From: an uncultured Prevotella sp.
GTDB lineage: Bacteria; Bacteroidota; Bacteroidia; Bacteroidales; Bacteroidaceae
Assembly: GCA_902800365.1 (NCBI GenBank)
Contig: CADCEF010000004.1
Coordinates: 31,768 to 95,767, forward strand
Direction: 5' to 3'
Length of the DNA stretch: 64,000 nucleotides
Position 1 is the first letter of the stretch. Each line of letters starts with the position of its first letter. The notes below the pieces were generated by a model. The model had not been told where the DNA came from. It saw only the letters and a program-made list of their open reading frames with translations, and made no database searches. Positions 54,367 to 64,000 of the stretch are shown one piece after another. The position numbers and the translations under genes were made by a program.

Positions 54367-54439
54367 GCACCCGTAGCTCAGTTGGTAGAGCACCTGACTC
54401 TTAATCAGGGTGTCCAGAGTTCGAGCCTCTGCGGGTGTA
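54367..54439 (+). tRNA. trnK: tRNA-Lys(CTT)
   Basis: 73-nt cloverleaf: GCACCCG/CGGGTGT acceptor, anticodon arm CCTGA-CTCTTAA-TCAGG, T arm CAGAG-TTCGAGC-CTCTG; CCA not encoded. Confidence 0.97.
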
Positions 54440-54447
54440 CTGATATT

Positions 54448-54478
54448 AAGAAGAGATAAGTTATACTTATCTCTTCTT
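54448..54478. terminator. Palindrome H1
   Basis: AAGAAGAGATAAG-TTATA-CTTATCTCTTCTT after tRNA. Confidence 0.85.
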
Positions 54479-54574
54479 TTTGTTTTATATCACTAAAATA
54501 ATCATAAATCCTTGGAAGTCTCAAATTATTGTCTTATCTTTGCACCCAGATGTATTACAATTGAATTACAAAAT

Positions 54575-54829
54575 ATGGCAACAACGACGATTAGAAAGCC
54601 CGCTTCGTTCAGACTTAGGGCTGACCTCTTAGAGGGATTAAAGCGAAATGCTGCACGAGAGAACAGGACACTCAACAACTATGTTGAGAGTGTGCTGCTC
54701 GGTATTGTATTTGATGAACCTAACGAGGTGACTAAAGCCGCTATCAAGGAGGCTAAGTCAGGTAAGAACCCCAATAAGGTTTATGATGATATTGATGAAC
54801 TCTTTAAGGATTTAGATTCGGATAAATGA
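54575..54829 (+). CDS. Ribbon-helix-helix antitoxin-like protein with no toxin partner
   Basis: RKPASFRLRADLLEGLKRNAARENRTLNNYVE, PNEVTKAAIKEA; own promoter TATCTTTG at about 54535. Confidence 0.75.
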   Translation: MATTTIRKPASFRLRADLLEGLKRNAARENRTLNNYVESVLLGIVFDEPNEVTKAAIKEAKSGKNPNKVYDDIDELFKDLDSDK

Positions 54830-57216
54830 AGAAACTTTTATCAACTATCGTGCTGGCCATTGTTGCAACTGCCGGGTGGGCACAAACTCGAATATGGAAT
54901 AACATTGTTACCGGCTATTCCAATGTACCATTTGTAAAAGTAACCAAGGTAGTACTTAGTGCCGACAGCACTGAGGTATTTCTGCATTTCGACATGCCAG
55001 AACGTGCTGCAGGCCAGGAAGGTGTATTGGCTGCGAAATCGCAACTCCAGGCCGACGGTAAGACCTACGAAGCAAAGAACGCCGTAGGTATGAAACTGGG
55101 GCAGCCCGTCAAGATACCTAAGGACTGTAAGTTAGACTTCTCGCTGGTGTTCGATGCCCTGCCAGCATCTACATGGCAGTTTTCTATAAGTGATCCCGGC
55201 ATGTGGATAATTAATGCTGTACGCGATGCTGATGCGAATGCTGATGCTGATGTAACCCCCGTTGGCGTCACCGACACTTATTGGCGCAATACGCTTACTG
55301 GCGACTGGCTGGTAGGATTCGGCCAGCACCATGTAATATATGATAATAAGGTGTGGGATATCCTGAATCAGAAAGAACAGAAGGACGCCTACGAGCTTAC
55401 TCTGAACAATGGACTTACCATCAAGGTGGGCAAACTGAAGAAAGGTATTCGCCCGATAACTATCGGCGATGCTAAAGCTATCGCCTGCAGTGCGATCACT
55501 AATCTGTCGATAGCCGACTATCCTACGAAAGATACTCGCAAGGGATTTGTAGACAACGGTTATCGTGAGGGCGACAGCGTTACCATCATAGGCTGGCTGA
55601 AGGATATGCCAGAGCCGGCGTGGAGACTAAGTGACGAGTTTGAAGTAAGGACGAGCAATTTCATCAGTGATAAAACTGAAAGCTATAAAGCAAAGCTCGA
55701 CTCGCTGGGACGATTTACACTCCGAATGCCCATACTCAATTCTACAACAGCAATACTCGACCCGCGAAGATCTTGGGAATGGTCTGTATTAGAACCTGGA
55801 AAGACGTACTTCTTCCTGAACGACTTCACGACTGGCCAGAAGCTGTTTATGGGCGATGACGTACGTTTGCAAAACGAGCTTGTGGCTTGTGATGCAGCAT
55901 GGCCGGATGCGCGCATCAATAAAGGCGAGAGCGCCATGCAATTTAAGGCGCGCACGGATAGTGACTGTGAAGCCATAATGGCCAAGATGCAGGAGAATAT
56001 CGCACATCGCCCGAACATATCGCAGCGCTATATCGATTACATTAAAGGACTGTGTATGGCAGGGCAGGGCAACTCGATGATGCAGGCCCGATTCGATGTG
56101 CCTGGCAAAAATCTGCCCAAGGAGTATATGGATTATGTTACCACCAAGCTGTGGCAGCCCATGCCTAAACCTTATACGCTCTATATGAACTTCGCACCAT
56201 TTATGCGCGACTATCTTGACCACCTGAGAAATGAGCGCCACTCTGTGAGCATTGATCCTTACACAATAACGTTGAACGACGGTGCCTATCCCATCATTTT
56301 ACGCCAGGCTAGGGCTGATGGCAAGGTATCGATTACCGACGAGGAGCTTGCCCTAATGGAGCGTTATGCAGTGGAATATCACAAGGAGTATGCCAAACAA
56401 GCCAAGAACCAGAAGATAGATAGTCTAAACATTGATTTGGCTGGTACCGATTTAGATAAGCTTGGCATTGCGGAGCAGTATCTTGCCATTATGGAGCGTC
56501 CTGATGTGAAGAAGGCGATAGAGCAAGAATTCTCGTTGATAGATTTGTATTACCAAAAGCAGGCTATCGAATCGGCAACTACCGATAGGGCATTGATTGA
56601 TATGGCCTTGGCTCGCAAATTCTATTGGAAGCTTAACTCGTTCCGCAAGTCGCTTGACCCTTCTGATTTGAATTTCGCCAATAAAGAAATCAAGTTGGCA
56701 TCGGCACTAAACTTTGTTTTGACCGAAAACGATAAGTATGTAGCTTTGGAGCATCAGGACTTGGCTAATGCAGCCAGTCTGCGACCATCAACCGATGTTG
56801 CGAACATGACCGATGGCGAGAAGATGCTGCGCAAGATTATCGAGCCATATAAAGGCCGAGTAATCTATCTCGATGTATGGGGCACTTGGTGCGGCCCTTG
56901 CAAGCAGAAACTAAAGGACTCGTGGAAAGTAAAAGAGGCACTCAAGGATTACGATATCGTGTATCTCTACCTATGTAATGGCAGCAGCGATGAATCGTGG
57001 AAGAATGTGATTAAGGAGTACAATCTGACAGGACCAAACTGTGTTCACTATAATCTGCCAAAAGAACAGCAGAGTGCTATCGAGCATTACCTGAGTGTAA
57101 ACAGCTTCCCCACATATAAGATTATCGATAAGCAGGGAAACATTCACGACCTAGGTTGGCTCGACGATCAAAATCTGGAGGCATTCAAACAGACTATGGG
57201 AAAATTCTGCAAGTAA
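54826..57216 (+). CDS. Large secreted protein with C-terminal TlpA/thioredoxin-like domain
   Basis: Signal peptide ending WAQ; YLDVWGTWCGPC, SFPTYKIIDKQG. Confidence 0.85.
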   Translation: MKKLLSTIVLAIVATAGWAQTRIWNNIVTGYSNVPFVKVTKVVLSADSTEVFLHFDMPERAAGQEGVLAAKSQLQADGKTYEAKNAVGMKLGQPVKIPKDCKLDFSLVFDALPASTWQFSISDPGMWIINAVRDADANADADVTPVGVTDTYWRNTLTGDWLVGFGQHHVIYDNKVWDILNQKEQKDAYELTLNNGLTIKVGKLKKGIRPITIGDAKAIACSAITNLSIADYPTKDTRKGFVDNGYREGDSVTIIGWLKDMPEPAWRLSDEFEVRTSNFISDKTESYKAKLDSLGRFTLRMPILNSTTAILDPRRSWEWSVLEPGKTYFFLNDFTTGQKLFMGDDVRLQNELVACDAAWPDARINKGESAMQFKARTDSDCEAIMAKMQENIAHRPNISQRYIDYIKGLCMAGQGNSMMQARFDVPGKNLPKEYMDYVTTKLWQPMPKPYTLYMNFAPFMRDYLDHLRNERHSVSIDPYTITLNDGAYPIILRQARADGKVSITDEELALMERYAVEYHKEYAKQAKNQKIDSLNIDLAGTDLDKLGIAEQYLAIMERPDVKKAIEQEFSLIDLYYQKQAIESATTDRALIDMALARKFYWKLNSFRKSLDPSDLNFANKEIKLASALNFVLTENDKYVALEHQDLANAASLRPSTDVANMTDGEKMLRKIIEPYKGRVIYLDVWGTWCGPCKQKLKDSWKVKEALKDYDIVYLYLCNGSSDESWKNVIKEYNLTGPNCVHYNLPKEQQSAIEHYLSVNSFPTYKIIDKQGNIHDLGWLDDQNLEAFKQTMGKFCK

Positions 57217-57333
57217 TTTGATACCGCCCCTAGGCGCACGAATATGCGGTACTTGGGCAGGGGCGAACAGGCTGTTCTCTCCTGCTTTGGATTGAGCCGA
57301 ATGTGGCGGGGCTTTATGCGCTGCCTCTTTCGG

Positions 57334-58458
57334 CTATTTTGCTTTTAAGGTGATGAGCCAAGGATTTGGCTTGTCGGTGGAACCGAAAAGGGTGGCTTTG
57401 TCACCGATGGCGCTGAAACGGCGCAGCTGCAAGTAGTCAGGATGGCCGTCGGCATCGGTGTCGTTGAAGGTGATAAGCGTGCACCAGCCAAGCTTGAGGT
57501 AGCCAGCGTTGGCATAGGTGAACGGAAGTTGTTGGCGCTGTGCGCCTTGAACGCTGTCACCTTGTACGGTGATGCTGTCGCCAGGGGCGAGAAGGTACAT
57601 GCCTGAGTCGGACGAGTTGCCTCGTTCTTCGAGGGTGTGATTGTGTCCAAACAGTAGGACGATGTCGTGTTTTTGGGCGGCACGGCTAAGGGTATTGAAC
57701 CAGCGTAGCCCGCCGGGGTTGTCATTACGAGAAGCGTGAATAGGCACGTGTGACATCACGATGATTGGGGCGTGACCGCTTAGGGTGTCAGCCCATGCCG
57801 CGAAGCGGGCGGAGGCCGATTCGGCTGAAATGCCGTAAGGGTCGGCTATGTCGATACCATTGTAGGCGCGCAAGCCGCCAGATGGTTGCTGTGGCATTGG
57901 CATGGTACTATCATTATTAGCAGGTGGAGGATTGTTGCCTGGAATGTTATCACCTTGCTCATCGTAAAGAGCTACTGCAGCTCGTGTCAACGAGTCGGTG
58001 GCATAAGCCATTTGAGCGTAGCTGATACCATAGATATAATAGCCATCGCATCGATGGGGACCACTAAAGAAGGCTGAATAGTCATCGGTGCAGTTCCGGT
58101 CATGTGAGCCGTAAGTAAAGAATATCTCTGTCTTGTTAGGATCGAGTGATGAGAAAATCTCTGATCGGAGGTCGGCAAGTGTGAAGGCTGGTTGTCCTGT
58201 ATCTCCTGCATCAGGACCACTGCCTACGTAGTCGCCTCCGAGCAGCACAACACTTGGAGTAACAATACCATTGCGGTTGGCAACCTTTTGAATAGCTGCT
58301 GCCAGATTGTTGCCATTGCCCGCCTCATGACGGTCGGACGCGACAAATAGCGAGGTTGTTTTACCTTCCCAAACAGGTGGATTGTCTTCCGTAGCACAAG
58401 CAGTTATCATCACGATACTGCAGATTGCCTTAATAGCAAGTAGTAAATCTTTCTTCAT
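57334..58458 (-). CDS. Calcineurin-like metallophosphoesterase lipoprotein
   Basis: Lipobox ITAC; SDRH, GGDY, GSHD, SHVP, GHNH motifs. Confidence 0.85.
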   Translation of the reverse strand: MKKDLLLAIKAICSIVMITACATEDNPPVWEGKTTSLFVASDRHEAGNGNNLAAAIQKVANRNGIVTPSVVLLGGDYVGSGPDAGDTGQPAFTLADLRSEIFSSLDPNKTEIFFTYGSHDRNCTDDYSAFFSGPHRCDGYYIYGISYAQMAYATDSLTRAAVALYDEQGDNIPGNNPPPANNDSTMPMPQQPSGGLRAYNGIDIADPYGISAESASARFAAWADTLSGHAPIIVMSHVPIHASRNDNPGGLRWFNTLSRAAQKHDIVLLFGHNHTLEERGNSSDSGMYLLAPGDSITVQGDSVQGAQRQQLPFTYANAGYLKLGWCTLITFNDTDADGHPDYLQLRRFSAIGDKATLFGSTDKPNPWLITLKAK

Positions 58459-58561
58459 CTTTAGATTGTTTTATGGTGCAAAGATACAAAAAATATTGGA
58501 TGAACCTCACGGTTTGGCAAATATTTCGTTTTAGAAATTCAGATGTGACTGATTCTTTAAT

Positions 58562-58695
58562 CTGCTGCAAAGATAACATAATTAGAGAAAACAACAAAAA
58601 AAAATCCCTATTATTCATTGGGGATATCCCTATAATATAAAAAGAGATAAGCTTTGGGGCTTATCTCTTTTGCTTATATCATATTTATTGCTTTA
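58562..58695 (-). repeat. Junction module copy A (palindrome + promoter) with inserted hairpin H2
   Basis: 58562-58635 nearly identical to 60207-60282; TATTGCTTTA shared at 58686-58695 and 60287-60296. Confidence 0.9.
58640..58671. terminator. Palindrome H2
   Basis: AAAAGAGATAAG-CTTTGGGG-CTTATCTCTTTT. Confidence 0.85.
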
Positions 58696-59040
58696 TAATA
58701 CAGCAGCGTGCTTTAGTTCGTTTTGGATGGCTTTATTGATAAAATCGTTTATTGTGGTGCCAGTAGCTGCCACAACAGCTGCCACTCGAGAGTGAAGCTC
58801 TGACGACATGCGAAGATTCAATCTCCCACTATATGGCTTAGCAGGTTCAACCCCATCAGCTTTACAAGCTTCGAGATAGCTGTCAACACCATCCTCAAAA
58901 TCCTTACGTAATTCTTCGAGTGTATCGCCTTCATAGAGAATCAGCGCCTTACTCATTCCCTGAACCTTTCCAAACAGGCAGTTATCTTCCTTACTATACT
59001 CTACACTGCCTTTGTAGCCCTTATACTCCAAATAATCCAT
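58693..59040 (-). CDS. hicB: HicB family antitoxin
   Basis: LEYKGYKGSVEYS, YEGDTLEELRKDFEDGVDSYL, KPYSGRLNLRMSSELH. Confidence 0.93.
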   Translation of the reverse strand: MDYLEYKGYKGSVEYSKEDNCLFGKVQGMSKALILYEGDTLEELRKDFEDGVDSYLEACKADGVEPAKPYSGRLNLRMSSELHSRVAAVVAATGTTINDFINKAIQNELKHAAVL

Positions 59041-59048
59041 ATCATTAA

Positions 59049-59309
59049 TTATTTAATATGTCCATACTCTTTAAGATGCTGATAAATCGACTTGATCATC
59101 CACTCTTTCATAATACTACCAGGATGAGGGCGATGAATATCAATGTAAACACCTAATGTATCATTCTTAAATCTAACACGAGAGCCTGAAGTTGCCCCTT
59201 TATTATGAACATTATATCCGAAGTGTGCTAAAAGTGCAATAGTTTCTTCGTACGTAAAGTCCTTGGGTTTCTTCTTGAAACGTTCAACCAATTTTTCTTT
59301 TGTACCCAT
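59049..59309 (-). CDS. hicA: HicA family toxin
   Basis: MGTKEKL, GATSGSRVRF, IHRPHP. Confidence 0.92.
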   Translation of the reverse strand: MGTKEKLVERFKKKPKDFTYEETIALLAHFGYNVHNKGATSGSRVRFKNDTLGVYIDIHRPHPGSIMKEWMIKSIYQHLKEYGHIK

Positions 59310-59329
59310 AATTATGTATTTGGCTGCAA

Positions 59330-59347
59330 AAGTACTAAATTTAGTAC
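59330..59347. promoter_or_regulatory. Putative HicB operator
   Basis: Perfect palindrome AGTACTAAATTTAGTACT overlapping the hicA -7 box (TACTTTTG on -). Confidence 0.7.
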
Positions 59348-59490
59348 TAACTTCCAAACTTTTTTCCGATTATTTTAGTTTTCCACCTTATATCCTTTTT
59401 AAAAGTATCATTTCATAAAAAAAGTGGGTTCGATATTTGGTAGTAACAGGAAGTAACATATACAGGGTCTAAGTGCCTGATATTCAAGAA

Positions 59491-59514
59491 GGGTTCGACA
59501 CTCTGCGGGTGTAC
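59491..59514 (+). repeat. Duplicated tRNA-Lys 3' end (attR-like)
   Basis: GGGTTCGACACTCTGCGGGTGTAC; preceded by AGTAACA direct repeats at 59442 and 59452. Confidence 0.85.
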
Positions 59515-59521
59515 GAAAAGC

Positions 59522-59553
59522 AAAAGAGATAAGTCGAAAAACTTATCTCTTTT
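59522..59553. terminator. Palindrome H3
   Basis: AAAAGAGATAAG-TCGAAAAA-CTTATCTCTTTT. Confidence 0.85.
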
Positions 59554-59560
59554 TTGTTTT

Positions 59561-60178
59561 TTATTCAAGTTTTCGTCCTCGATAGTAATCATTAAATGCA
59601 TCTTTGGCATAGCCATCGCCAGTATATTTAAATGTGCCGGCAGAGGCTCCGTCTACTTTCTTTCCAAAATAGAACACGGTGAATGCATCCTTGGCGTAAC
59701 CACCTTCTAATAACTTAAAGGAACCTGCTGAAGCTTCAATCTTTCTACCATGATAGAATACGCTGAAAGAATCCTTTGCATAACCTTCGCCTATTTCCTT
59801 GAATGTAGCTGCAGTTGCGTCTATCTTTTTACCATCATAGTAAACATTAAAGTCTGATTTGTAATAACCTTCATGTCGTCTGTCGTAATCGCGGTGTTCC
59901 ATTGGTTCACGATAATGCGACTTAGAATGACTCTTAAGACGGAAAGTAGCAGGATCGACATACTCCAGCACTCGACCGTCGAGATATACATTTTCGCAGT
60001 CCTTTGCATAACCGCAACCTAAATCTACGAACGTACGAGCATCGGCATAAGGGATTGGCTTGCGCTCAAAAAGCACTATGCCACGGTCGACTTCATACGA
60101 TTGTGCATATACCGATACAGTACATCCTAATAATCCTATCACCATAAGTGACTTCAGTAAAAATGCTTTCTGTTTCAT
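59561..60178 (-). CDS. DKNYY-family repeat protein, exported
   Basis: Repeated YAKDxxxVYYxGKKI units; signal peptide. Confidence 0.82.
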   Translation of the reverse strand: MKQKAFLLKSLMVIGLLGCTVSVYAQSYEVDRGIVLFERKPIPYADARTFVDLGCGYAKDCENVYLDGRVLEYVDPATFRLKSHSKSHYREPMEHRDYDRRHEGYYKSDFNVYYDGKKIDATAATFKEIGEGYAKDSFSVFYHGRKIEASAGSFKLLEGGYAKDAFTVFYFGKKVDGASAGTFKYTGDGYAKDAFNDYYRGRKLE

Positions 60179-60206
60179 ACTCTTGATAATTTAGAATTTT
60201 AAATAA

Positions 60207-60296
60207 CTGCTGCAAAGATAACATAATTAGAGAAAACAACAAAAAAGAAAATCCCTATTATTCATTGGGGATTTTCCTATAACATCTATTGCTTTA
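60207..60296 (-). repeat. Junction module copy B
   Basis: Palindrome AAAATCCCTA-TTATTCAT-TGGGGATTTT abutting -33 TTTG / -7 TATCTTTG promoter of DKNYY gene. Confidence 0.9.
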
Positions 60297-60382
60297 CTGA
60301 ATAAATCAGCCTGTTAGCTGATAATTTTTCTTTAGAAGGAATAGAAATTTTATTTTTGCATCGGATTAAACAAATAAATAAG

Positions 60383-60952
60383 ATGCGAAAGAAACAATTA
60401 TTGGTAATATGTATGTTCCTGATTTCAGGAAGCCTGATGGCTCAGGAGCCAATGCATAAACGAAAACAAGTGACCTATGAGCAGGTTACTAAAATGATGG
60501 TCAAGGATCTTCAGCTGGATGAAAAGCAGCAGAAGAAGGTGACTAAACTCAATAAGAAGTACAAAACCCTTATTGAGGGTGAGCAACGCGAGGCTCCAGG
60601 CAAAGGACGCCCTAATATGGGTGAACGACCTTCAGGACCTCCTAGTGGCGGTATGCCGGGTGGACCTGGTGGTTTTGGTGGTGGTCCTGGAGGCGGCTTC
60701 GGTGGAGGCATGCCTGGAGGTATGGGAGGAGGCCCAAGGACGGGTGGAATGCCCGGAGGACCAGCTTCAGAAAACAGCTATGACTACGACAAGAAACAGA
60801 AGAAGTACGACAAGGCAATAAGCAAAATCCTGTCTGAAAAGCAGATGGAGGGTTATCAGGAGATTAAGACCCAGTTTGCCTCACAGAGACGCGTAAGAAA
60901 CTTCTTGTTTGGTTCACCACAAGACTTCAACAAAGATGGAAAAGATAAGTGA
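60383..60952 (+). CDS. Exported protein with Gly/Pro/Met-rich low-complexity linker
   Basis: Signal peptide ending MAQ; GGPGGFGG repeats between helical Lys-rich segments. Confidence 0.7.
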   Translation: MRKKQLLVICMFLISGSLMAQEPMHKRKQVTYEQVTKMMVKDLQLDEKQQKKVTKLNKKYKTLIEGEQREAPGKGRPNMGERPSGPPSGGMPGGPGGFGGGPGGGFGGGMPGGMGGGPRTGGMPGGPASENSYDYDKKQKKYDKAISKILSEKQMEGYQEIKTQFASQRRVRNFLFGSPQDFNKDGKDK

Positions 60953-61053
60953 GTTGGTAATGGCTGTAATATCAGCGATAGTCCAAAGTGCAGTATTCCT
61001 TGTGATTCTTTTTATGCTGTTCATATCCTTTGTCAGCATATTAATACCAGCAA

Positions 61054-61085
61054 AAAAGAGATAAGCATTTGCGCTTATCTCTTTT
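61054..61085. terminator. Palindrome H4
   Basis: AAAAGAGATAAG-CATTTGCG-CTTATCTCTTTT, directly after HEPN stop. Confidence 0.85.
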
Positions 61086-61088
61086 ACT

Positions 61089-61493
61089 TTATTGTTTATT
61101 CTCCTCTTCAAATAACTGATCTTTGAAGAATGCTATCGCTTGTTTTAATGGTTCCAACTCTTTTTTTACTACTTCGTAGACAACATCAGCGTCGACTTCA
61201 AAGTAGTGATGAGCCATAATATCGCGTATACCCATAACCCTTTTCCAAGGAATGCTTGGATATGTAGGTAATAGTTTTCCTTCGGAAACTTTGTCGAGAT
61301 TCTTAATAGACTCTCCGATTGCTATCAGTACCATACATGCAGCATCAAGTTTCTCCATTCCCACAGGACTGGTTAAGAAATCATCAACTGAAAGAATGTT
61401 TTTGGTTCTTTCCTGGAGTCTGTTTATGGCCAATTCCAGCTGACTAAGAGTATGCCATATTAGAGGCAGATTCTCTGATGATATCGATTCCAT
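61089..61493 (-). CDS. HEPN (DUF86/HepT-like) toxin
   Basis: IPWKRVMGIRDIMAHHYFEVD (RX4H); start codon uncertain. Confidence 0.88.
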   Translation of the reverse strand: MESISSENLPLIWHTLSQLELAINRLQERTKNILSVDDFLTSPVGMEKLDAACMVLIAIGESIKNLDKVSEGKLLPTYPSIPWKRVMGIRDIMAHHYFEVDADVVYEVVKKELEPLKQAIAFFKDQLFEEENKQ

Positions 61494-61767
61494 CTTTCTC
61501 AATTTGTTTAAGTAAGAAAGCATCATTATTACGATGTTTCCTGATTAAGTCAACATGACATCCAAGCAGACTTTCGAGATACTCTTGCAGACCAATTATC
61601 TTATAGATACTAGGTTCCATCTCAACAAACACATCAACATCGCTCGACTCATGCTGCTGATTACGAGCTAACGAGCCAAACAAGCGAAGCGAACGGACGT
61701 CGAATTCTTCAATAATCGTCTTTGCATTCGCCAAAATCTTATCGATGCATTCTTGTCTACTTAACAT
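61444..61767 (-). CDS. Minimal nucleotidyltransferase (MntA-like) antitoxin
   Basis: LFGSLARNQQHESSDVDVFV, LGCHVDLI. Confidence 0.9.
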   Translation of the reverse strand: MLSRQECIDKILANAKTIIEEFDVRSLRLFGSLARNQQHESSDVDVFVEMEPSIYKIIGLQEYLESLLGCHVDLIRKHRNNDAFLLKQIEKDGIDIIRESASNMAYS

Positions 61768-61895
61768 ATCTGCTGCAAATATAACTCAATTATCTGAATA
61801 ATGCAAGTTTTTATGGAATTTTCCATTATTTGTGCTAATATTTGAGACTTTTATGAGATTTTTTTAGTACCTTTGCACCCCCAAAAAAGAAAAAA

Positions 61896-62234
61896 ATGAC
61901 ATTACACGATCTTATAAACTCTGTAGACACCGAGCAGTATAGCGATAATCAGCTATACCAGAAGCTCCGTAATACTAAGCCAGAATATGGCTATCTCCGA
62001 CGTATTAATGTAAAAGAAGAAAAAGGCAAGCTCATAATCACCAACACTCATATAGGCTCACTAGGCGACATTCTTACATACGTAGTTGATGTAGCTCCGG
62101 AACTGAACATATCTAAGGTTCAGCTCTTGGACGCCATCCTGCAGGAGATGTCAAAAGGCGGTTTCTCAGAGCAAGAAGAGTGCGTCTTCTGGAATGATTT
62201 CGACAATCTTCAGAAAGCCAAGATTATCAGATAA
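61896..62234 (+). CDS. Hypothetical protein
   Basis: 112 aa ORF downstream of TACCTTTG box. Confidence 0.65.
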   Translation: MTLHDLINSVDTEQYSDNQLYQKLRNTKPEYGYLRRINVKEEKGKLIITNTHIGSLGDILTYVVDVAPELNISKVQLLDAILQEMSKGGFSEQEECVFWNDFDNLQKAKIIR

Positions 62235-62260
62235 ATCATAATTCACCACGAAATAAAACA

Positions 62261-62381
62261 GTTATAGGAAAATCCCCAATGAATAATAGGGATTTTCTTT
62301 TGGGGCGATAAACTGAAAAGTGTTATCTTTGCAGCGGTTATTTAAAAATCGTAATTATCAATCATTAAAATTAAAAGTATG
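62261..62381 (+). repeat. Junction module copy C (inverted relative to A and B)
   Basis: 62261-62301 is the exact reverse complement of 60243-60283; promoter and leader also resemble copy B. Confidence 0.9.
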
Positions 62382-62936
62382 AAAAAGCTATTATTTATTA
62401 TGGTGGCCCTATGCATGGCTACAACAATCGATGCACAGGTTTATGTGGGTGGTGGAATCGGTTTCACCCGAACAACTGAAGCTTTAAACAAGTCGACTAT
62501 CTTTAGACTTATGCCCGAGGCAGGATATCGTATTAACGATCGCTGGGCCATAGGTTTGTCTCTAGGTTATGCCAATTCTAAGAATTCTACAGAAGTAAGT
62601 GGTATGGAATCGGAACTGAAACTAACGCAATATAACTTTAATCCATATGCACGTTATACCTTTGCAAAAATAGATAAAGTTGGTTTGTTTGTTGATGGAG
62701 GTGTTGAGTATATACACCGCGACATCAAAGGGTCATATGATACAAATGCCTGGAATATTGGTCTGCGCCCAGGTATCAGTTTCGCTGTGAACGACAAAAT
62801 AAGTCTTGTGGCCCAAGTAGGATTCCTTGGTTACCGCACTCAGAAATCAGATTTTGAAGGCGCAATAGCCACAAACACTTTCACAGCCGATATAGATGGT
62901 AATGATCTCTCCTTCAGTGTTTATTACAACTTCTGA
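62379..62936 (+). CDS. Outer-membrane beta-barrel protein
   Basis: Signal peptide ending DAQ, alternating aromatic strands, C-terminal YYNF. Confidence 0.85.
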   Translation: MKKLLFIMVALCMATTIDAQVYVGGGIGFTRTTEALNKSTIFRLMPEAGYRINDRWAIGLSLGYANSKNSTEVSGMESELKLTQYNFNPYARYTFAKIDKVGLFVDGGVEYIHRDIKGSYDTNAWNIGLRPGISFAVNDKISLVAQVGFLGYRTQKSDFEGAIATNTFTADIDGNDLSFSVYYNF

Positions 62937-62942
62937 AAAAGA

Positions 62943-62974
62943 AAAAGAGATAAGCGCAAAAGCTTATCTCTTTT
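62943..62974. terminator. Palindrome H5
   Basis: AAAAGAGATAAG-CGCAAAAG-CTTATCTCTTTT between convergent genes. Confidence 0.85.
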
Positions 62975-62980
62975 TTGTCT

Positions 62981-63892
62981 CTATAGATTCTCGGCCTCAA
63001 GGAAACGTAACTCAGCCTCCAGCATCTCCAGCTTACGCATAGGGAATCCAGCCTCGCGGGCTATCTCAAGCGGACGTGTGTAGAGATAATATATCTCCAT
63101 CGGACGATGGAAGTCGTAGTCCAGTCGCATCGATGGCGAGTAAGGCGTCATCTCGTCCGTCATCGTTATCATCTTCTCAACAAACGCCTCGTCAAGGTTC
63201 TTCACGCCCAGATGCAGAGCAGCGCCTACCACCTCCATCATCTGCTCGCGTATCAGCTTTCGTGTAGAAGGGTTCTTCAGCAGTTTGTCGGTCTGCGTGT
63301 GCAGTGCCACCGTCATACCGTTAAACGGCATGTTCCATACCGCCTTTTTCCATCGCGCCTCGTTATACTCCACCAGCCCAGTCTCAATGCCAGCAGCGCG
63401 GAATTCATCCACCACCGCCTGCATCTTCGCCTCGTCGCGGCATGAGTAGTTGGCCAGGTTTATGCTGCCGTAGCACTGATGACTCACCACACCCGGCTCA
63501 GTCTTTGCCGAACAGATAAAAGCCAGTCCTGCAGCCAGCTGCACCCCAGGAAACATCTTCTGCACATCGTCCTCCACACCTATGCCGTTCTGTATCAGCA
63601 CCACCAGCGTGTCGGCGCCTACCAATGGAGTCAGCAGCTCCTTCAGCATGCCGTTGTTAACCGATTTCAGGCCCACCAGCACCACGTCGCACTTTGGCAT
63701 GTCGCTCGAGTGCTGATACACGTTCACGTTGTCCAGATGGAACGATCCGTCGCACGAGTCAACCTGCAGTCCGTTCTGCTTCACATATTCATAGTCGCGA
63801 TGCAGCAAGAAGTGCACCTCCTGCCCTCCATGAGCCAGTTTTGCACCGTAATATCCTCCTATGGCACCAGTGCCGATTACTCCGTATTTCAT
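62981..63892 (-). CDS. panE: Ketopantoate reductase family protein
   Basis: GTGAIGGYYG, LIQNGIG, WKKAVWN, SMRLD; start could be 63898 or 63904. Confidence 0.85.
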   Translation of the reverse strand: MKYGVIGTGAIGGYYGAKLAHGGQEVHFLLHRDYEYVKQNGLQVDSCDGSFHLDNVNVYQHSSDMPKCDVVLVGLKSVNNGMLKELLTPLVGADTLVVLIQNGIGVEDDVQKMFPGVQLAAGLAFICSAKTEPGVVSHQCYGSINLANYSCRDEAKMQAVVDEFRAAGIETGLVEYNEARWKKAVWNMPFNGMTVALHTQTDKLLKNPSTRKLIREQMMEVVGAALHLGVKNLDEAFVEKMITMTDEMTPYSPSMRLDYDFHRPMEIYYLYTRPLEIAREAGFPMRKLEMLEAELRFLEAENL

Positions 63893-64000
63893 ATTCATTT
63901 CCATTATTCCGGGGCAAAGGTACAAATTTTCCCGATAAAGCCACAACATTAATTCGCTTATTTGTATTTAATACTATCCGAAATGTTTCCAAGGCCCATT

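Follow-up and report, generated by a model that had tools for sequence, protein, structure and literature searches.

Elements that integrate at the T-loop or 3′ end of tRNA genes leave tandem att repeats, as is known for elements of the non-replicating Bacteroides unit (NBU) type and for many genomic islands. Here we describe a locus of comparable anatomy in a window of 64,000 nucleotides from an uncultured rumen Prevotella sp. (GenBank assembly GCA_902800365.1, contig CADCEF010000004.1, positions 31,768 to 95,767 of the forward strand; coordinates below are those of the window unless another contig is named). Five copies of a short palindrome, which we call hairpin A (H1 to H5), lie inside 8.5 kb between a tRNA-Lys(CTT) gene and panE. 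The original prediction for this DNA proposed a dual role for them as terminators and recombination sites, or else a mobile hairpin resembling repetitive extragenic palindromic (REP) sequences. Their appearance is that of terminators put to repeated use and of scars left by integration, not that of loxP or REP sequences. The most probable explanation, which we favour with some reservation, is that hairpin A is a bidirectional terminator, originally that of tRNA-Lys(CTT), multiplied by att duplication and by exchange, and that hairpin A and a second repeat, repB, act as shared modules by which the island is remodelled.

As in described tRNA att arrays, an intact tRNA gene is present at one end, direct repeats of the tRNA 3′ part bound the inserts, and the tRNA end is restored together with its terminator. 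There are likewise several units per array, inserts that are present in some strains and absent from others, and a large mobile element ending in the same repeat. The locus differs from such arrays in that an integrase is present in no version seen, the elements being remnants of 0.6–5 kb, and in that three more hairpins, two of them inverted, stand on other genes without any tRNA part. With Rho-independent bidirectional terminators, hairpin A shares a stem-loop between an A-tract and a T-tract, located just past stop codons and between convergent genes, in which pairing is kept by compensatory and wobble changes. It differs from them in the reuse of one sequence five times in one locus and in its A/T-rich stem, and its role is a predicted one.

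Small inversions of hairpin loops are known at the 3′ stem-loops of chloroplast genes. Here, too, the loop of a conserved stem is flipped between close relatives (L145 against L204), and loops vary far more than stems; the setting, however, is bacterial, and the hairpin has been multiplied within one island.

Hairpin A, a palindrome confined to one island

A pattern search for AAAAGAGATAAG-N8-CTTATCTCTTTT gives four exact matches in the window (H2 to H5, listed with all other features in Table 1), with none expected from 100 shuffles. H1 has a spacer of 5 nucleotides, TTATA, between the arms AAGAAGAGATAAG and CTTATCTCTTCTT, and contains a compensated arm change (A to G, with T to C opposite). 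From H1 to H5, the hairpins follow the tRNA-Lys gene, hicB, a duplicate of the tRNA-Lys 3′ end, the HEPN/HepT gene and the gene of a small outer-membrane beta-barrel protein (OMP). The palindromes and the genes preceding them are as originally reported. The 12-8-12 geometry given for them is correct for the arms and needs refinement at the spacer, the outermost bases of which usually pair, leading to a stem of 13 bp, in some copies 14 bp, with a loop of 6 nucleotides (3 nucleotides in H1).

Read along the preceding gene, the spacers are CCCCAAAG for H2, TCGAAAAA for H3, CGCAAATG for H4 and CGCAAAAG for H5. Those of H4 and H5 are identical at 7/8 positions in this gene-following orientation and at 2/8 in the opposite one. 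The gene-oriented loops, which also include CCGAAAAG and TCCAAAAG, can be arranged in a common pattern (CGCAAAAG, CGCAAATG, CCGAAAAG, TCGAAAAA, TCCAAAAG, CCCCAAAG); the hairpin A copies are homologous and not look-alikes. The spacers are thus related, as had been proposed; the direction assigned to them is not fixed, as the loops of L145 and L204 are exact reverse complements.

In the whole assembly, a draft of 2.89 Mb in 53 contigs, only these five copies are present, all at the island. A genome census of perfect inverted repeats (arms of at least 10 bp, loops of 3–10 nucleotides) contains 391 entries, and just two non-low-complexity families reach five copies: hairpin A and an unrelated one on contig C48. 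Hairpin A was not found in 24 close relatives, and among 400 species of the genus three genomes have it, each as a single copy. A scan of species genomes across GTDB gives scattered single matches in unrelated phyla, which are chance A/T-rich hairpins; in 596 Gb of sequence, the arms shortened to 10+10 are present as single copies in a wide range of unrelated phyla. The only informative matches in the GTDB-wide and IMG/VR-wide pattern scans are those at the tRNA-Lys gene of another species (L170) and at the end of a mobile element (L178/G417). A generic terminator used throughout the genome was considered and rejected, given five local copies only and nearly none in the 400 genomes of the genus. 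Counted over the genome, the motif is thus confined to the island between tRNA-Lys and panE; a frequent terminator behind housekeeping genes, which would have undermined the original prediction, it is not.

A terminator scan calls all five copies terminator-like, with runs of 4–6 T. They fold with free energies between −18 and −20 kcal/mol (z-scores of −4.8 to −8.6 against shuffles), and an A-tract is located 5′ and a T-tract 3′ of the stem. Where the preceding gene is hicB, HepT or the OMP gene, the hairpin starts 3–21 nucleotides past its stop codon; behind the tRNA or tRNA fragment, the distance is 7–8 nucleotides. H3, H4 and H5 are placed between convergent genes. A stable stem-loop with a T-run just past a gene end is the anatomy of an intrinsic terminator, and we regard the hairpin A copies as predicted bidirectional intrinsic terminators. 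An Rfam search of the locus reveals the tRNA only, and no other RNA family. Among the strain variants, some pair solely in the RNA of the gene-following strand: a T..G closing pair is present in L157, L167 and L178, and in L184 and L190 the H1-type copy contains a G..T wobble that likewise pairs only in the gene-following orientation. These wobble intermediates and the compensated change of H1 would favour selection on the pairing of a transcript hairpin.

Repeats at tRNA-Lys and rearrangement among strains

Around 40 contigs from related strains, 90–100% identical, were collected, some by exact matches to the panE, HicB and HepT proteins and others through a pattern scan of metagenomes. HicB is listed for 177 collection blocks as an exact protein and HepT for 195, and both are encoded at this locus in every contig read. 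Contigs from the pattern scan are biased to intact arms, and statements on arm conservation rest on the contigs found by protein. We infer the directions of events, that is, insertion as opposed to deletion and the ancestral orientation of segments.

The sequence at 54416–54490 is repeated directly at 59490–59564 with 78% identity (blastn), and the two copies contain H1 and H3. The att-like unit of which they are part measures about 85 bp, from the tRNA T-loop to about 14 nucleotides beyond the hairpin. Related strains have one to three units per contig, in tandem arrays, bounding different DNA each time; the unit recurs in L142 (twice), L141, L143, L147, L167, L168, L184 and L190. The DNA at the units is a 0.6-kb piece with only the gene of 105 amino acids (aa) in L168. 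L133 and L142 have a piece of 1.9 kb with hicBA and a CarbopepD_reg_2 gene, the window has a 5-kb insert, and in L141 the DNA exceeds 10 kb, its genes including AbiE-like and further defence-like ones. L184 has a hicBA unit and a unit of the 105-aa, YafQ and thioredoxin (Trx) genes, in reversed order with respect to the window. The DKNYY gene comes directly after tRNA-Lys and its hairpin in L164; in L144, a decayed locus, a remnant of DKNYY takes this place. The insert at the repeat is thus present in some strains (the window, L133, L168 and L184) and absent from others (L164 and L144), and it is flanked by direct repeats of the tRNA 3′ end, with the intact tRNA gene on one side. Judged from sequence, this is the standard picture that repeated integration at a tRNA gene would produce.

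The TTATA-type hairpin is always paired with the 105-aa gene on its right (also in L183, L184 and L190), as expected if the element brings its own tRNA end and terminator. The IMG/VR record G417, 31.6 kb long and similar to a phage or an integrative and conjugative element, terminates exactly in the tRNA fragment and hairpin; its genes include those for replication, anti-restriction and a head protease. In G371, another species of the genus, the same stem is located directly 3′ of tRNA-Lys, with a different loop (L170). The second tRNA-Lys(CTT) gene of the genome, on contig C2 (58221–58400), has a terminator that differs from hairpin A. Its promoter and tRNA region is 92.8% identical to the window copy, and its terminator begins with GAGATAAGC, the core of the hairpin A left arm.

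Other strains have a defence-like insert at the same tRNA-Lys gene (340–10993 in L141; 3426–5904 in L182 and L186–L189). Its operon contains genes for a 313-aa protein, a 259-aa protein (weakly AbiEii-like) and a metallophosphoesterase, and the insert also codes for an AAA ATPase, sigma-70-like and nucleoside 2-deoxyribosyltransferase-like proteins, and DUF3990 and NADAR proteins. Some strains with this insert have hicB without hicA. In L182 (position 5192 of the flipped contig, about 7157 of the original), the tRNA-Lys 3′ end and the hairpin are deleted, with CTCTGCGG joined to CTTTTT. The deletion probably inactivates that tRNA-Lys copy; the species has the second tRNA-Lys(CTT) gene on C2.

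Breakpoints among the strains fall into four classes. The first is formed by the att-like unit, its left edge in the T-loop and its right edge about 14 nucleotides past the hairpin, and the second by the edges of repB. The third consists of microhomology deletions away from the repeats, examples being the loss of the OMP gene in L156 and of the DUF4890 coding sequence in L133; the latter is also deleted in L135, and DUF4890 is absent in L156. In L144, the DKNYY and OMP remnants are fused through a TTTGTCTCTA microhomology; this locus was considered as an empty site and rejected as such, being a decayed array. The fourth class is at the immediate edges of hairpin A. On the left of H4, DUF4890 is present in the window and absent in L156, and on its right, the HepT, MNT and 112-aa genes are present in the window and absent in L168. 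Some breakpoints therefore fall at hairpin A, at both edges of H4 and, for H1 and H3, within the att-like repeats, which is in line with the original prediction; most are elsewhere.

The repB sequence consists of hairpin B (GAAAATCCC-N12-GGGATTTTC) and a Bacteroidetes-type promoter (TTTG ... TATCTTTG). It is common to the metallophosphoesterase, DKNYY and OMP genes and often follows hairpin A. The composite junction of hairpin A and repB has hicB or HepT on one side and the DKNYY or metallophosphoesterase gene on the other; because it recurs with different gene partners, recombination must have occurred in or beside it. Towards panE, repB copy 2 and its counterpart repB′ contain a 41-bp perfect inverted repeat (60243–60283 and 62261–62301) inside a promoter-plus-hairpin module of about 100 bp. 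The complete 2-kb segment between them (60284–62260), which includes DUF4890, H4, HepT, MNT and the 112-aa gene, is present in both orientations among strains (L202 against the window, L198 and L205). The promoters for the DKNYY and OMP genes point outwards and are unaffected by the flip. The outer edge of repB, CCTATAA, has three alternative neighbours among strains.

Apart from a few bases of flank (AAGC-AAAA ... TTTTTTG), the hairpin itself is all that H2, H4 and H5 share with the tRNA-linked copies. Their loop orientation tracks their own gene, even when that gene is inverted: in L133, where HepT is encoded by the plus strand, H4 reads CGCAAATA on that strand. The arms hardly vary in contigs that were chosen independently of the hairpin pattern; the one uncompensated change seen is in an H2 allele of six contigs, and one H2 allele combines such a change with a loop of 10 nucleotides. 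Loops vary by substitution, in length (5, 7, 8 or 10 nucleotides) and in orientation. L145 and L204 have loops that are exact reverse complements between identical flanks, which amounts to a flip in place, and the H4 loop is flipped in L204. At the junction of the tRNA or its fragment with DKNYY, six different loops are present among strains, and loops at one and the same junction differ at 3/8 positions. The loop CGCAAATG is shared by three non-orthologous copies: H4, the copy at the tRNA of L133, and the H5 of L156 and L168. Loop sharing between copies and loop diversity at one junction point to conversion between the copies.

Under the explanation we favour, hairpin A would have begun as the terminator of tRNA-Lys(CTT) and would then have been copied within one hypervariable island by two routes. 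In the first, mobile elements carrying the att segment of about 85 bp would integrate at tRNA-Lys, each insertion leaving a scar of tRNA fragment and hairpin; H1 and H3 would be of this kind, and the elements would have decayed to integrase-less remnants rich in toxin-antitoxin pairs. In the second, exchange between copies would have given H2, H4 and H5 after hicB, HepT and the OMP gene. Hairpin A and repB would provide short portable homology and unstable palindromes, at which host recombination and replication template-switching may reshuffle, invert, delete and homogenise cassettes.

Several observations weigh against this explanation. An integrase for the att site is found in no contig examined, which leaves anatomy as the basis for the integration step: contig C4, L141 and G417 are without a PF00589 gene, and the open reading frames (ORFs) tested from L164, L203 and L133 contain no integrase domain. 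The copies H2, H4 and H5 are without a tRNA fragment and two of the three are inverted in the window, which att duplication cannot directly explain; the exchange invoked for them is something we infer from patterns. The stem is unusually A/T-rich for a terminator, with 4 G-C pairs per 13–14, and near-invariant arms with variable loops are also expected of a protein-binding or recombinase site. In five related species there is no tRNA-Lys beside the gene of the FAD-dependent protein, and because of this the ancestral state of the locus is uncertain. The closest panE relative, G015 (85% amino acid identity), has other neighbour genes and no hairpin, and comparison of synteny with the related species defines no ancestral empty site.

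The locus is a compact natural case in which genes that are not related to one another use common terminator and promoter modules. Together with the tRNA att site, these modules would give a small island its high plasticity across the strains of a single rumen species. Should the modules drive exchange, integron-like variation would arise in Bacteroidota by a route that needs no recombinase or one acting in trans; should they not, the island is still a clear case of terminator reuse, accumulation of att scars, toxin-antitoxin retention and hairpin-loop flipping in a bacterium. For genetic work in Prevotella or Bacteroides, hairpin A and repB are candidates for a compact terminator and an insulated promoter.

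Recombination sites, mobile palindromes and convergence

Integron attC sites and the rAID-1 loci of Bacteroidales resemble the island in their repeated intergenic sequences after stop codons and their unrelated, low-GC cassette genes. A rAID-1 locus is defined by a 5′ XerD-like recombinase, at least two co-directional genes with a GC content of at most 41%, and repetitive intergenic sequences (Ross et al., bioRxiv 10.1101/471110). At this island no recombinase is adjacent and gene orientation is mixed; only the repeats and the GC content of the right-hand part (39.5%) match. An attC site is an imperfect palindrome with R″/L″/L′/R′ cores (GTTRRRY), accompanied by IntI and by promoterless cassettes of one orientation. 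Hairpin A is not an attC site either, as it is a perfect palindrome with no GTTRRRY core, no extrahelical bases and no IntI, and the genes here are on both strands with promoter motifs of their own. The loxP and FRT sites (13-8-13) resemble hairpin A in their inverted arms, 12–13 bp long, which enclose some 8 bp of asymmetric sequence. They differ from it in that the spacers of hairpin A are unequal (five out of five differ) with their outer bases paired, that no cognate tyrosine recombinase is encoded alongside, and that rearrangements are mostly elsewhere.

It is unlikely that the hairpins are sites of a trans-encoded site-specific recombinase comparable to those of integrons and pdif modules, with the arms binding the enzyme, the loop as the crossover region and termination secondary. 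Nearly invariant arms and a variable centre of 8 nucleotides throughout the strain contigs would suit such an enzyme; however, the spacers differ among all copies of one strain, which blocks exchange of the loxP/FRT type. Cassettes are joined to the hairpin at 3–21 nucleotides past stop codons, and H4 has breakpoints at both edges (L156, L168), but the att-like unit reaches well past the hairpin and has the tRNA T-loop as its left edge, and the cassette losses are microhomology deletions away from the hairpins. The inversion makes use of repB and not of H4 and H5, although these are inverted and their spacers only 1 nucleotide apart, and no H4–H5 inversion is present in the strains seen. No cassette between two hairpins predicts a one-site circle. 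Identical loops at non-orthologous copies would be in line with a recombinase, as would cargo resembling that of a cassette array (three toxin-antitoxin pairs and small surface proteins), the low GC content of the right-hand part of the island (39.5% against 46.9%) and the presence on contig C48 of another local palindrome family, likewise located at gene boundaries. No recombinase gene is present on the contig of the island, however, nor was one found in the related contigs examined or in record G417; the three PF00589 genes of the genome are on contigs C28, C39 and C45, the last one broken. A dif/Xer or terminus reading was rejected: the 100-kb contig shows no switch in GC skew, and the arms have no further dif-like copy.

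Equally doubtful is the wider proposal that the island is an integrase-less counterpart of the integron in rumen Prevotella, in which hairpin A and repB would serve as portable junctions and either a trans recombinase or hairpin-directed replication and repair would shuffle toxin-antitoxin, defence and surface cassettes.

That hairpin A is a miniature mobile palindrome is very improbable. Such an element, similar to REP sequences or to miniature inverted-repeat transposable elements, would be about 44 bp long with TATA-rich flanks and would insert downstream of genes. REP sequences and bacterial interspersed mosaic elements with their RAYT genes are also short extragenic palindromes at gene 3′ ends, but they are dispersed in tens to hundreds of copies and come with a Y1 transposase gene, whereas hairpin A has five local copies within 8.5 kb and no RAYT or IS200-type gene; the sole PF01797 match (23.5 bits) is a cytidylate-kinase-like ORF. 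The window does contain what looks like a filled and an empty site: repB copy 1 continues into TATA-hairpin-GCTTATAT and then CATATTTATTGCTTTA, and repB copy 2 directly into CATCTATTGCTTTA. This paralogous "empty" site is equally explained by excision of an extended palindrome, no orthologous filled/empty pair was found among the roughly 40 strain contigs, and the GTDB matches are scattered single copies in unrelated phyla. The original interpretation is thus supported in part: the terminator half of the dual role is supported by computational prediction, and neither the loxP/FRT-type half nor the REP-like alternative is upheld.

Resemblance by chance or convergence between independent ordinary terminators in A/T-rich intergenic DNA, conceivable in so far as the 10+10 arms do turn up singly in other phyla, is effectively refuted because the copies cluster locally (all five are within 8.5 kb, the remaining 2.88 Mb contain none, and none is expected in shuffles), and the related, oriented loops and shared flanks point to common descent.

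Features of the island and its surroundings

The island is bordered by two core genes, for a FAD-dependent protein and for panE, and its right-hand part has a GC content of 39.5%, compared to 46.9% for the genome. Within 8.5 kb there are three toxin-antitoxin pairs or remnants of them: hicAB, MNT-HepT and the 105-aa gene. In the window, the thioredoxin-domain gene starts within the 105-aa gene. In L184 (4731–5317), a 90-aa YafQ/ParE-type toxin gene (YafQ_toxin) is located between the two, and in L190 a truncated toxin remnant of 43 aa. Because the toxin gene adjoins it in L184, the 105-aa gene of the window is probably an orphan antitoxin. The surviving pairs fit decayed elements whose addiction modules persist.

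Table 1. Features of the island from tRNA-Lys to panE, in window coordinates (folding free energies in kcal/mol).
Feature	Position	Strand	Remarks
tRNA-Lys(CTT)	54367..54440	+	ARAGORN; Rfam 68 bits; island anchor, putative integration target
att-like direct repeat, left copy	54416..54490	+	tRNA T-loop to about 12–14 nt past hairpin; homology to other strains stops at 54490
H1, hairpin A variant AAGAAGAGATAAG TTATA CTTATCTCTTCTT	54448..54478	+	follows tRNA-Lys; −19.9
105-aa gene	54512..54829	+	no Pfam match
796-aa protein, C-terminal thioredoxin-like domain	54826..57216	+	Pfam Thioredoxin_8
Metallophosphoesterase, 374 aa	57334..58458	-	Pfam Metallophos
repB copy 1	58558..58635	-	93.8% (blastn) to 60204–60282; promoter directed into the metallophosphoesterase gene; with H2 forms junction module J
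H2, hairpin A after hicB	58640..58671	-	minus-strand loop CCCCAAAG; −18.2
hicB (58693–59040) and hicA (59049–59357), toxin-antitoxin pair	58693..59357	-	Pfam HicB, HicA_toxin
att-like unit, right copy	59453..59580	+	37-nt element end, tRNA-Lys 3′ fragment (59490–59520), H3 and 27-nt flank
H3, hairpin A	59522..59553	+	loop TCGAAAAA; after tRNA fragment, also at DKNYY 3′ end; −18.4
DKNYY-repeat protein, 205 aa	59561..60178	-	Pfam DKNYY
repB copy 2	60183..60283	-	DKNYY promoter module; left inverted-repeat arm
DUF4890-family protein, 189 aa	60383..60952	+	Pfam DUF4890; own promoter; H4 its only predicted terminator
H4, hairpin A after HepT	61054..61085	-	minus-strand loop CGCAAATG
HepT (61089–61493) and MNT nucleotidyltransferase (61444–61767), toxin-antitoxin pair	61089..61767	-	Pfam HepT-like, Polbeta, NTP_transf_2
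112-aa protein	61896..62234	+	no assigned function; 3′ end at hairpin B of repB′ (predicted terminator)
repB′	62261..62361	+	OMP gene promoter module; right inverted-repeat arm
Small outer-membrane beta-barrel protein (OMP), 185 aa	62379..62936	+	Pfam OMP_b-brl
H5, hairpin A	62943..62974	+	loop CGCAAAAG; between convergent OMP and panE genes; −20.1 (plus strand), −18.7 (minus strand)
panE, ketopantoate reductase	62981..63949	-	Pfam ApbA, ApbA_C; core gene, right island border

The second palindrome family of the genome is located on contig C48 (L173). It has the sequence ATGTCAGGGGAC(A/T)GTCCCCTGACAT, with 12-1-12 geometry and no T-run, and its five copies are all on this 13.4-kb contig (at 481, 6743, 7280, 9337 and 10391), with none elsewhere in the genome. 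They are found at the boundaries of unrelated genes, namely AAA_14/DUF4143, peptidase S41, 271-aa ORF, nucleoside hydrolase/PrsW and GNAT genes. Three other contigs with this cluster have the same gene order, and no strain variation is seen among them. For the integron-like reading, the family is a hint that variable regions could commonly be built in this manner in the lineage.

To the right of panE (beyond 63949; 1–9703 in L134), genes for APH, NUDIX and Schlafen-like helicase proteins are followed by those for RteC, a peptidase M15 and a Toprim/DnaB_C primase-helicase. The content of this region varies among strains, with Vsr, Nuc_deoxyrib_tr or LRR genes in L199, L204 and L205, and it looks like part of another mobile or defence region.

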